NCBI GenBank assembly: GCA_963809895.1
Contig: CAWELD010000010.1
Span: forward strand, 224,001 to 288,000
Reading direction: 5' to 3'
Source of the DNA: an uncultured Gemmatimonadales bacterium
Lineage (GTDB): Bacteria; Gemmatimonadota; Gemmatimonadetes; Longimicrobiales; Gaopeijiaceae
Length of the DNA: 64,000 bases
Shown piece after piece: positions 41,171-51,642 of this stretch; the first letter of the stretch is position 1, and each line of letters begins with the position of its first letter. The notes below the pieces were generated by a model. The model did no database searches. It saw nothing but the letters and a program-made list of their open reading frames with translations, and was not told the DNA's origin. A program made the translations under genes and the position numbers.

Positions 41171-41246
41171 GGAGCACCTCGATGCTGGAATGTTCCGGCA
41201 GTCTACCGCCATGGGGCGCACGAGGCCACCGTGCCACCGTGGGTCG

Positions 41247-42033
41247 CTAGGGAGCCCCGGGGCCTCTCAGCGCCCGCTCCAGGATCTCCAGGAGCTCGGA
41301 ATCCATGTCGTCCACGCCCTGCATCCACTCGATGTAACCCGGCTCGTTGCGGGCCACGTCCTCGAGCAGGCTCCCCCGGTGCTTTCCTCGCCGAAAGAGC
41401 AGTCCCTCCTCCGTACTCTCGAACCATCGCTCCAGCGCCGTCTCGAAAGGCGCGTACTCGTCGCAGTAGGCGTGCAGCCCGTCCAGGTCCCTGGGAAGGT
41501 GGCCGTAGCGCTCGAGCTGGGCGGACAGGACCGCGGCCGAGGTGCGGATGTCGCCGAGGGCGCTGTGGGCCTCGGGGTGCTCGCGGCCCAGGTAGAAGCG
41601 GGCCGCCGCCGACAGGTCGCGGCGCTCCTCGCGGTGGAAGATCGCCTGCATGTCGATGAGCCGCCGGTCGCCCACGTCGAAGTCCACCCCGGCTCGGCGG
41701 AACTCGGCCAGGAGCATGGGCAGATCGAAGCGGCGGATGTTGAAGCCGGCCAGATCGGCATCGTCCAGGAGCTCGGTCGAGCGCCCGTGCGCGCCGCGCG
41801 AAGGGCGCCTCGTCCCGCACGTCCTCGTCGGTGATGCCGTGGACGGCCGTCGCCGCGGCGGGGATGGGGATTCCCGGATTGAAGCGGCGCACGCGCTCCA
41901 GGACGTCGCCGGCGGGGGTGAGACGGATGAGGGCCAGCTCCACGATGCGGTCGGCGGTGACGCTCAGGCCGGTGGTCTCGAGATCGAAGAAGACCAGCGG
42001 CCGGTCCAGGGGAAAGGGAAGCTCCATGGTCAT
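41247..42033 (-). pseudogene. DEDDh 3'-5' exonuclease (DnaQ-like) split by a one-base frameshift near 41777
   Basis: FFDLETTG...VHGI in one frame continues as AGFNIRRFD...AHSALGD in another. Removing one base restores ALAELLDD. Confidence 0.8.
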
Positions 42034-42269
42034 GGCTCCGGCCTCCGGGACGACACGAGGGCAGGCAGGGACACCGCCGCCCACGCCCCTTCCAGGACGA
42101 TGAATCCGAGTCGCCAATCGACGATTGCGATCCACAGGAGGAGGAGCGAGCCGCACAGGTTCAGGAGCGCGTACGTGCGGTCCCGCGGCCCGAGGCGGCC
42201 ACGCTGGTTCAGAACGTAGGCCACCAGGATGAGCGTGGCCCCCACGAGCGAGATCGTTTGATCGAACAA
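42030..42269 (-). CDS. Small membrane protein (CBU_0592-like)
   Basis: GA.LILVAY...Y.LLNL.GS...GFIVLE..W. Stop overlaps the exonuclease ATG. Confidence 0.75.
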   Translation of the reverse strand: MFDQTISLVGATLILVAYVLNQRGRLGPRDRTYALLNLCGSLLLLWIAIVDWRLGFIVLEGAWAAVSLPALVSSRRPEP

Positions 42270-42343
42270 GGCGGCGTCCCCATGCTACGTGGTTCGCGAA
42301 GGGTCGGTCCACATAAGGTACCCGCGTCACCCCCGGAGGTAGA

Positions 42344-43345
42344 ATGGCCGAGTCGGACATGCGCGCCATCGTGCTGCGAGAGCACGGCGGGCCCGAGGTC
42401 ATGGAGTTGCGTCGCGTGGCCCGGCCGGTACCCGCCCGGGGCGAGCTCCTCGTGCGCGTGCACGCCTCCGGGGTGAACCGAGCGGACCTGAGCCAGCGCA
42501 GGGGGCACTACCCCGCACCTCCCGGGTGGCCCGCCGACATTCCCGGGCTCGAATACGCGGGCGTCGTCGAGGCCACGGGCGCGGACGCCGACCTCTTCCA
42601 GCCCGGGGATCGGGTCATGGGTCTCGTCGGGGGAGGTGGCTACGCGGAGCTCCTGTCGGTGCCGGAGCGAGAGGCGGTGGCCGTTCCTTCGGCGCTGGAC
42701 CTCGGGGAGGCGGGTGCCGTGCCCGAGGCCTTCTTCACGGCCTGGGATGCGCTGGTGCGGCAGACGGGCCTCTCCGGCGGCGAGACGGTGCTGGTCCACG
42801 CCGCAGGCAGTGGCGTGGGCACGGCGGCCATCCAGATCGCCCGCGCGTTGGGATGTCGCTCGGTGGGAACCTCGCGCACACCGGAGAAGCTGGAACGAGC
42901 GGCGGGGTTGGGCCTGGACCAGGGCATCCTCGTCGGCGGAGACGCGGACTGGCCCGCCGCGGTCCTGGAGGCCACCGGAGGGCGAGGCGTCGACGTGGTC
43001 CTGGATCTGGTGGGTGCCGCCTATCTGGAAGGCAACCTGCGCTGCCTCGCACCACGGGGCCGCTGGATCGTCGTAGGTGTGCCGTCGGGCCACGCCGGAA
43101 CGATGGACCTTCGCGCCCTCATGGGGCGCCGCGCCTCCATCACCGGCACGGTGCTCCGAGCGCGCCCTCCGGAAGAGAAGGCCGTGTTGGCGCGCGACGT
43201 GGCCAGGCGCCTGAATCCCCTGATCGAGAAGGGTGCCCTCGTGCCCGTCGTCGAGCGGGCCTACGCACCCGAAGAAGTGGCGGAGGCGCACCGCCGCATG
43301 GAGTCGAATCTCAACTTCGGCAAGCTCCTGATTGTCTGGCAATGA
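42344..43345 (+). CDS. NAD(P)H-quinone oxidoreductase, PIG3 family
   Basis: GVNRAD..QR.G.YP.P, PGLE, GGGYAE, PEAFFTAW, HAAGSGVG, N.GKL. Confidence 0.9.
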   Translation: MAESDMRAIVLREHGGPEVMELRRVARPVPARGELLVRVHASGVNRADLSQRRGHYPAPPGWPADIPGLEYAGVVEATGADADLFQPGDRVMGLVGGGGYAELLSVPEREAVAVPSALDLGEAGAVPEAFFTAWDALVRQTGLSGGETVLVHAAGSGVGTAAIQIARALGCRSVGTSRTPEKLERAAGLGLDQGILVGGDADWPAAVLEATGGRGVDVVLDLVGAAYLEGNLRCLAPRGRWIVVGVPSGHAGTMDLRALMGRRASITGTVLRARPPEEKAVLARDVARRLNPLIEKGALVPVVERAYAPEEVAEAHRRMESNLNFGKLLIVWQ

Positions 43346-50155: not shown

Positions 50156-50938
50156 ATGGATACCCTCTCGCCTCCCCACGGACCCACGATCTCCGAAGAG
50201 GCCGCCGTCGGGCCCGTGCCCTATGCGGTCCACCCCGGCTGGCGGCGGGCGTTCCCCTGGCTCGCTCACGGAATCACCCGGGAAGGGGATCCAGCGACCC
50301 CGTGGGACATGGCGCTTTTCGGGGACGGCGCCGCGGCCCCCACTCTGCGCCGCTGGCAGTCGCTTCTCGACGCCGTGGGCATGGACCGGGCCGTGCACGC
50401 CCGCCAGGTGCACGGCGCGGCGGTGCGTGTCCACGACGGCCTCGCCCCGGGGATTCGACTCGCCCCGGATTGCGATGGGCACGTGACCGGCGCGCCGGGC
50501 GTGCTGCTGGCGGTCACGGTGGCGGACTGCGTGCCGGTGTGGCTGGTCCACCCCCGGCGGCGCGCGGTCGCCCTCCTGCACGCGGGCTGGCGTGGCATCG
50601 CCGCCGGCGTCCTGGAGTCGGGGCTCGCGGCGCTTCGGACGCGGTTCGGCATCTCGGCCGGGGAGCTGCACCTGCACCTCGGGCCCGCCATCTGCGGCCG
50701 ATGCTACGAGGTGGGCCCGGAGGTGCACGACGCCCTGGGCTTGCCCCGGCCGGAACGGCCCACTCCCGTGGACCTGCGCACGCTGCTCCGGGAGCGAGCG
50801 ATCAGCGCCGGCGTGCAGGAGGCGCACACCACCGCCTCGGCGCACTGCACGCGTTGCGGAGAGCTGGACCTGTTCTCGCATCGGCGAGGCCGGTACGAGC
50901 GCCAGGTGGCCTTCGCGGGCATCCGTGTCGGGGCCTGA
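50156..50938 (+). CDS. pgeF: PgeF/YfiH (laccase-domain purine nucleoside enzyme)
   Basis: QVHG, VADCVPV, HAGWRG, GPAICGRCYEVG, CT.C...FSHR. Confidence 0.9.
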   Translation: MDTLSPPHGPTISEEAAVGPVPYAVHPGWRRAFPWLAHGITREGDPATPWDMALFGDGAAAPTLRRWQSLLDAVGMDRAVHARQVHGAAVRVHDGLAPGIRLAPDCDGHVTGAPGVLLAVTVADCVPVWLVHPRRRAVALLHAGWRGIAAGVLESGLAALRTRFGISAGELHLHLGPAICGRCYEVGPEVHDALGLPRPERPTPVDLRTLLRERAISAGVQEAHTTASAHCTRCGELDLFSHRRGRYERQVAFAGIRVGA

Positions 50939-50953: not shown

Positions 50954-51175
50954 GTGATGCCCCGCGGCGAGGTGTTGCCGGGCCTGTGTGGAGACTGCCG
51001 CCACGCGCGCGTGATCGAGAACCGTCGGGGCTCCACCTTCTATCTGTGCGAGCGTTCTCGCACCGATCCCCGCTTTCCCAGGTACCCGCCTCTGCCGGTA
51101 CTGGCCTGCCCGGGCTTCGAACCCGCGGCCCACGATCCCCCTGACAACCACCAATCCGAAACGGAGAGACCATGA
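50954..51175 (+). CDS. Small four-cysteine hypothetical protein
   Basis: GLCGDCRH...FYLC...RYPPLPVLACPGF. Stop overlaps the next ATG (ATGA). Confidence 0.7.
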   Translation: MMPRGEVLPGLCGDCRHARVIENRRGSTFYLCERSRTDPRFPRYPPLPVLACPGFEPAAHDPPDNHQSETERP

Positions 51176-51642
51176 GCGAGCCCTTCTACGTATCGCGCTG
51201 CACGGTGACCCGGGTGGCCGGCGTCCACCGTCGAGCCCGCCTCCAGGACGGCACCATCGTGGAGATGGGCGTCCACGGCGCCATCAAGCGACACTACGGC
51301 CTGGACGCCGAGCCGGACCTTCCGCTGCCGGTGGATCTGCTGGTGGCCGCCGCTGCCGGGTGACTACTGGGAACCCTCAATGGCGCGCTGGAGGCGCGCG
51401 AGATCCTTCTCTCGCCCGACGACCTCACGGTCGAGGCCGAGGGCATCAACGAGATCCGGGACCGGGTGCCCGTGCTGACCCTGATCCAGGTGCACTACAC
51501 CATGACCATTCCCCGGGGAACGCGTGACGCCGTGGACCGGGCGCTGGCCCGGCACGTCGATCGGTGTCCCACCGCGTGCTCGCTCAAGGGCGCGGTGTCG
51601 GTGACGTGGACCGCGGAGATCGAGGAGGCGGACGAGGCGTAG
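51172..51642 (+). CDS. OsmC/Ohr-like protein, probable selenoprotein (UGA at 51361-51363)
   Basis: PVDLLVAAAAG-UGA-LLGTL...HVDRCPTACSL. The frame stays open to TAG at 51640-51642 (156 aa), and a SECIS-like hairpin follows the UGA. Confidence 0.8.
51369..51407 (+). promoter_or_regulatory. Putative bacterial SECIS element
   Basis: Upper stem GCGCGC/GCGCGC (51383-88/51394-99) with loop TGGAG 25 nt after the UGA. Lower pairing CTC/GAG and GGA/TCC. Confidence 0.6.

Follow-up and report, generated by a model that had tools for sequence, protein, structure and literature searches.

Within the window, which is the whole stretch of 64,000 nucleotides analysed here from an uncultured Gemmatimonadales bacterium, positions 51172-51642 are confirmed to hold one intact gene, encoding a selenoprotein of the OsmC/Ohr fold (Table 1). 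Exactly as described in the initial annotation, the frame that opens with the ATG at 51172 stops at 51363 after 63 sense codons and, beyond this TGA, continues for 92 more sense codons to the TAG at 51640-51642. The read-through translation contains PVDLLVAAAAG-U-LLGTLNGALEARE and, later, HVDRCPTACSLK. The G+C content at the three codon positions is alike on the two sides of the UGA (0.78/0.48/0.89 before vs 0.72/0.47/0.90 after). A scan for promoters and terminators at the locus found none.

Table 1. Positions of genes and sequence features at the locus, in window coordinates
Feature	Position	Strand	Basis
PgeF/YfiH-like gene, probably first of the same transcript, start approximate	50159..50938	+	PF02578, 158 bits
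Small Cys-rich ORF, 73 aa, CxxC...C...C, stop overlapping the start codon of the selenoprotein gene (ATGA)	50954..51175	+	ORF
GGAG-type ribosome-binding site 5' of the ATG	51162..51167	+	Sequence only; function inferred
OsmC/Ohr-fold selenoprotein gene, 156 residues, read through one UGA	51172..51642	+	PF02566, model, fold match
Codon 64, UGA in frame; predicted Sec, in the column of the peroxidatic Cys	51361..51363	+	TGA conservation, alignment to solved OsmC proteins
Bacterial SECIS hairpin within the CDS (codons Gly-Ala-Leu-Glu-Ala-Arg), 6-7 bp stem, GGA loop	51383..51399	+	Fold, covariation
Cys132, predicted resolving cysteine, C-P motif	51565..51567	+	Conservation

The letters at the UGA were compared with public data. 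Contig X1 from a public run that looks independent covers 51232-51416 at a depth of 2.1, spans the UGA without a single differing letter and reads TGA again, the run being possibly the source of the assembly. A contig from an RNA library corresponds to 51344-51493 and has one end 17 letters from the UGA; such contigs cannot prove transcription.

The two genes upstream recur in only part of the related loci. The Cys-rich ORF, which has no Pfam or NCBIfam match, immediately precedes the selenoprotein gene in 43 of 122 loci and the PgeF/YfiH-like gene is upstream in 42 of 122; the ORF possibly encodes a metal-binding partner, or its position reflects mere synteny. A sucA gene is found near the selenoprotein gene in 21 of the 122 loci, many of which are too short to reach it. 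The divergent sucA would suit a lipoyl reductant and hints weakly at one, since it adjoins the gene in close kin alone. In other lineages the neighbours are ctaA, nusA/rimP, DUF885 or glycosyltransferase genes. A conserved functional neighbourhood was not found among the 122 loci, as the neighbours vary by lineage and name no substrate.

The UGA codon is conserved in relatives. In a set of 86 loci that includes the window gene and some genomes twice, all 84 loci that cover column 64 have TGA, and in an enlarged set 122 of the 123 covering loci have TGA and one has TGC. Because 12 loci of the enlarged set were chosen for holding a TGA, the unselected counts matter more: in a phylum sample, all 49 matches, from 31 of 151 genomes, carry one TGA, as do 25 of the 26 matches from a second phylum. 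In a Planctomycetota-centred sample, the seed genome alone matched (1/151). Together with the Cys proteins in databases, the loci thus show both residues at this column, the alternatives that the initial annotation had envisaged for homologs. The Cys132 codon is TGC or TGT in 83 of 84 loci, and the cysteine is invariant in 45 of 45 proteins compared. Two copies of the gene are present in 18 of the 31 gene-bearing genomes. A paralogous branch of about 38% identity (L134-L139, L049, L050) has the motif T-L-D-Y...G-G-U-L-T-G-T-F-G-G-A-L-E-A-R, with UGA and hairpin in the same register as in the window gene.

Standard annotation mostly splits the gene, as had been anticipated. Among the best 120 database matches, 97 are C-terminal halves that start just past the UGA, and full-length proteins number 22, of which 19 have Cys; among 150 distant representatives, 71 span column 64 (56 with Cys), 33 are C-terminal halves and 19 are N-terminal halves that end at residue 63. 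Moreover, an ATG directly follows the UGA in 55 of 117 relatives. This ATG and the listing of the halves as proteins could speak for a gene inactivated by a nonsense mutation, for an error in the reads, or for a gene genuinely divided into two that each make a small protein. Against this, none of the 122 loci, which span several lineages at identities down to 37%, has TAA or TAG in place of the TGA, and both halves are conserved and in frame; the first start codon after the UGA in the window copy is at 51466; two separate products would lack the catalytic residue; and contig X1, with the reservation given above, has the same letters. We consider this reading refuted because of the conservation, and the probability left to it is negligible. 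Reading through the UGA repairs an annotation in which most of the best database matches are halves without the catalytic residue.

The initial annotation had pointed to a GCGCGC-TGGAG-GCGCGC hairpin with its loop 25 nt past the UGA, and this hairpin is present, with a predicted energy of -11.2 kcal/mol. When a U-G closing pair is added, it has a 7-bp stem and a GGA loop that begins 25-26 nt after the UGA. It fits the bSECIS model set out in the available text of PMC13188914, the geometry of which was applied with our own script and not with bSECISearch. In isolation the hairpin is not unusually stable: the z score of the 60-nt fold (-0.82) is within chance, and model-conforming hairpins of equal or greater stability follow 129 of 3000 TGA triplets drawn at random from the genome. 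Stability was therefore discarded as evidence. 

What raises the hairpin above chance is its conservation and covariation in relatives, in which UGA and hairpin are kept together. In 101 distinct sequences, counted as sequences and not as independent events, pair +27:+35 is A-U in 56, G-C in 41 and G-U in four and is broken in none; pair +23:+39 is G-C in 89, G-U in six and C-G in six; pair +26:+36 is C-G in 100 and U-A in one; and mismatches are confined to the closing pair (four) and +24:+38 (one). At the synonymous site +27 no letters but A and G occur, and position +35, with which it pairs, toggles between Ala and Val; RNA structure here clearly drives protein sequence, as a synonymous change in one codon goes with an Ala/Val exchange three codons further along. 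For the Leu that supplies the loop G, the codon is always CTG (117 of 117), with neighbouring Leu codons variable, and it is CTC in the TGC gene. Judged from these alignments, the hairpin behaves as a selected structure.

The genome that contains the window is 95% complete, and its relatives are labelled Gemmatimonadota, Longimicrobiales. The selenocysteine machinery sought in it is present throughout: tRNA-Sec, with anticodon TCA, scores 76.6 bits (cut-off 47), and selA (540 bits), selB (322 bits) and selD (374 bits) all exceed their curated cut-offs. The selD gene (G000:C3:3207072) has an in-frame TGA of its own in the motif HGAG-U-ACK, with a hairpin downstream. UGA is also the main stop codon of this genome, ending 959 of 1246 long coding-like ORFs; a general reassignment of UGA was rejected on this ground, and recoding at codon 64 is consequently site-specific.

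In the phylum sample, selA is above cut-off in 119 of 151 genomes, and all 31 genomes with the gene are among these 119; none of the 32 genomes without selA carries it. Among 60 near relatives, selA is present in 26 of the 28 genomes with the full gene, and family f2 has neither (0/12). The TGA form also occurs without a selA match in G027, which nevertheless has selB and tRNA-Sec, in G307, for which completeness is not given, and in G026, which is 78% complete and lacks matches for selA, selB and tRNA-Sec alike. The nominal p value of the co-occurrence of gene and selA is 2e-4, which overstates its strength because selA is common and kin are not independent. The frequency of selA indicates that selenoprotein use is common in Gemmatimonadota; the literature search listed no dedicated study of selenoproteins in this phylum.

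Tryptophan or glycine stands at the Sec column in the database proteins P0008, P0012, P0009, P0125, P0141 and P0123. The first three of these and five representatives with such residues, as well as the Cys twins described below, could be taken to mean that a special tRNA or an altered code reads the UGA as Cys or Trp instead of Sec. The W/G entries are most simply gene calls made under translation tables 4 and 25, as we infer. This reading is, moreover, at odds with the role of UGA as the main stop of the genome; the only tRNA found with a UCA anticodon scores as tRNA-Sec, and the hairpin, which fits the bSECIS model (PMC13188914, in the text available), has no loop G any more in the TGC gene. 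We hold a Cys or Trp reading to be highly improbable. As far as sequence comparison can tell, the UGA is almost certainly recoded as selenocysteine.

The TGC gene (L265) was confirmed as DNA and equals database protein P0011; it is the one gene in which a Cys codon was checked in this way, and its host genome has selA. In a careful tree of 56 rows, built with column 64 masked, Cys proteins fall at five places among Sec genes within a close clade (43 rows, support 100/100). Over the whole tree, the starred branches require at least five changes between Sec and Cys (bootstrap range 7-9). As a lead, this pattern suggests repeated reversion from Sec to Cys, in a direction that depends on the root, with one Cys codon seen as DNA and with TGA and TGC a single base apart; such reversion is called rare in bacteria in the available part of PMC13188914. 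The natural Sec/Cys twins, with 50-60% identity, offer a direct test of the benefit of selenium in an enzyme of the OsmC fold and, likewise, of the role of the uncharacterised Ohr-like group introduced below.

The read-through protein matches Pfam family PF02566 with 51.4 bits (cut-off 27.5) over residues 50-146, i.e. across the UGA, and its structure is predicted with a pLDDT of 95.4. The best fold match is 2onf (Ta0195; Z 15.8, rmsd 2.0 over 139 residues), followed by YhfA, VCA0330 and PSYC_0566, with 1ml8, 2d7v and 2pn2 among the entries, and the 12 best structural matches are all OsmC/Ohr-family entries. The Cys homolog P0002, used as a query against the ESM Atlas, matched generic OsmC clusters only. 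In alignments to solved OsmC proteins, the UGA falls at the first Cys, which bears out its proposed position at the catalytic column; the catalytic Cys pair of OsmC/Ohr has residues 64 and 132 as its aligned counterparts, and their separation agrees with the spacing of the redox pair (about 60 residues). We conclude that Sec64 and Cys132 very likely form a redox couple.

Other parts of the canonical active site differ. Of the two Glu residues in the PEE motif, the first, which we take to be the catalytic Glu, aligns to Val, Leu or Ile in this family, and Asp55 matches the next residue. The Arg of the FNTR motif of OsmC aligns to an unconserved position. The residues conserved in this family are R/K20, G33, H35, D55, R76 and H128. 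Arg or Lys is present at residue 20 in 51 of 56 and, in the model, seems to lie at the end of the beta1-beta2 loop or the start of strand 2.

According to the portions of PMC5384416 available, Ohr and OsmC need both an Arg and a Glu, a third, Ohr-like group exists without them, the catalytic Arg of Ohr sits in the beta1-beta2 loop, lipoyl groups are the reductant of Ohr/OsmC, and one Ohr-like protein had no peroxidase activity in one laboratory. By sequence, the redox pair would work as in Ohr/OsmC, yet the protein falls in neither subfamily: against TIGR03562 (OsmC) it scores 16.4 bits (cut-off 85.8), and TIGR03561 (Ohr) gives no match for the window protein P0001. It shares with both the fold and the position of the redox pair and differs in the replaced catalytic Glu. 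A separate, canonical OsmC with R-F-E and NPEEL (L109) is encoded in the same genome. With Val or Leu in the Glu column, the protein is placed in the poorly characterised Ohr-like group, which is a catch-all and not a defined clade. Like members of that group, it keeps the Cys pair and lacks the canonical Arg and Glu, with fold Z scores of 13.6-15.8, and its top matches include entries that PMC5384416, in the portions available, lists as Ohr-like. It is distinguished from the Ohr-like structures 2onf (Ta0195), 1ml8 (YhfA), 2pn2 and 2d7v by low identity (14-23%), by Sec in place of the first Cys and by a GVHG loop of its own.

In the mechanism that we propose, SelB would bind the GGA-loop hairpin 25-26 nt past the UGA and deliver Sec-tRNA, giving a 156-residue protein with Sec64. 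By analogy to Ohr/OsmC, the selenolate of Sec64 would attack a hydroperoxide or another oxidised substrate, Cys132 would close a Se-S bond with Sec64, and a dithiol, e.g. a lipoyl arm, would re-reduce this bond. More speculatively, an ionised selenol might make the Arg/Glu pair dispensable. The account as a whole, comprising a selenoprotein gene, SelB-dependent insertion of Sec64 and a Sec64/Cys132 redox pair, is in our estimate very probable. The initial annotation had proposed a Sec/Cys peroxide or thiol reductase; the Sec part of that proposal is upheld, and peroxide reduction is an extrapolation from Ohr/OsmC that is not assured, because the Glu of true Ohr/OsmC proteins is replaced by Val or Leu. 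By the same analogy, the chance that peroxides are the physiological substrate may be put slightly above even.

The protein could alternatively be a selenoprotein without peroxidase activity, in which Sec64 and Cys132 serve thiol-disulfide or persulfide exchange, act as a sulfur or selenium carrier or form a metal site, perhaps with the Cys-rich protein. The missing Glu and OsmC-type Arg are in keeping with such a function, as are the uncharacterised Ohr-like proteins among the best fold matches (2onf, 1ml8, 2d7v, 2pn2), the family-specific conservation of G33, H35, D55, R76 and H128, and the four-Cys ORF, whose overlap with the start codon recurs at 43 of 122 loci. However, this ORF is missing from most loci, both redox residues occupy the peroxidatic and resolving Cys sites, and R/K20 (51/56) seems, by its position in the model, to lie at the end of the beta1-beta2 loop, where the catalytic Arg of Ohr is located (PMC5384416, in the portions available). 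We regard exchange, carrier or metal-binding roles as a real but distinctly less probable alternative, with about one chance in three, and keep to the Sec64/Cys132 redox enzyme as the preferred reading.

An OsmC-like selenoprotein with the motif UxxT was predicted in 2005 from the Sargasso Sea survey (PMC1088965) and appeared again in the GOS survey of 2008 (PMC2398784), and this UxxT family is the sole OsmC entry in the inventories of 2022 and 2026 (PMC9312934; PMC13188914) and the deep-Sep supplement (PMC12013277), each as far as its available text extends; the available texts on BSepDB (PMC13326102) and SelCysML (PMC13745706) do not mention OsmC. The UxxT family, represented by NF041052 (OsmC_like_Se), shares with the window family the PF02566 fold, an identical Sec column, eleven residues past a conserved Pro, a second Cys about 70 residues later and a SECIS element within the CDS. 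Their motifs differ, with G-F-U-L-L-T-[QN] (UxxT) and G-C-F-A-E in the NF041052 family and G-U-[LM]-L-G-T-L and C-P-T-A in the window family, so that UxxT is absent here (U-L-L-G-T vs U-L-L-T in published sequences). In the NF041052 family the SECIS loop mostly follows the UGA by 19-20 nt; in the window family it is about 6 nt further away, at 25-26 nt. NF041052 is the family most often hit weakly by the window family (25 of 45 members), which would be compatible with a shared origin. Membership was rejected, as the window protein scores 12.8 bits against a cut-off of 95 and all four published-motif controls, scanned out of 80 loci collected with that motif, score 159-170. Group profiles of the two families cross-score at most 27 bits, and NF041052 has no match above cut-off in the 151 phylum genomes.

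A quick tree sets the window family (50 rows, SH-aLRT 98) apart from the published family (13 rows, 100), in a separation that is weakly supported. In the accompanying test, also by a quick method and with 84 rows after 14 of the 98 collected rows were dropped, the tree that joins the two families was 4.5 log units better (p-AU 0.575), so that common ancestry is not rejected and an origin independent of the published Sargasso family is not demonstrated. The 2026 review, in its available text, counts differing Sec motifs as distinct subfamilies (PMC13188914); by this rule, the branch described here is an unlisted subfamily. We found no description of it in the literature searched, and it may already be listed in BSepDB, among U-bearing GenBank records, or by Haft and Tolstoy 2025 or Deng et al. 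2026. In total, we conclude that this is a real, uncatalogued subfamily of an already published kind of selenoprotein, outside the published family; it is an addition to the inventories consulted, in which this subfamily has no entry, and not a new mechanism. A more far-reaching scenario is doubtful, namely a second, independently evolved Sec OsmC family (with a possible third of YhfA type) that is widespread in Gemmatimonadota and neighbours, in which Sec stands in for activation by Arg/Glu and has reverted to Cys several times.

Five other loci (L128-L132, in G100, G067, G094, G101 and G064) hold an OsmC-fold gene of YhfA type with a UGA, a hairpin of its own and the motif L-G-[SA]-U-[TM]-S-M-T-I-A-L-Y-A-R. 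In the tree these 5 rows (SH-aLRT 96) sit within a set of relatives that have Cys only, and all five genomes have selA. The two that were scanned score 57-61 bits on NF041052, below cut-off. This YhfA type is possibly a third Sec-OsmC subfamily.

Three minor observations concern other parts of the genome. On the minus strand of the window, an ORF at 41203-42402, presumably exonuclease-like from its start LVFFDLETTG, becomes low in complexity about halfway along, which points to a frameshift or an error of assembly. A translation-factor GTPase match at G000:C3:232157-233324 lies in two frames with one TAG inside and is possibly a damaged or misassembled EF-Tu copy. Finally, 18 tRNA genes are clustered within 3.3 kb on the same contig as the window and outside it (G000:C10:355200-358464).
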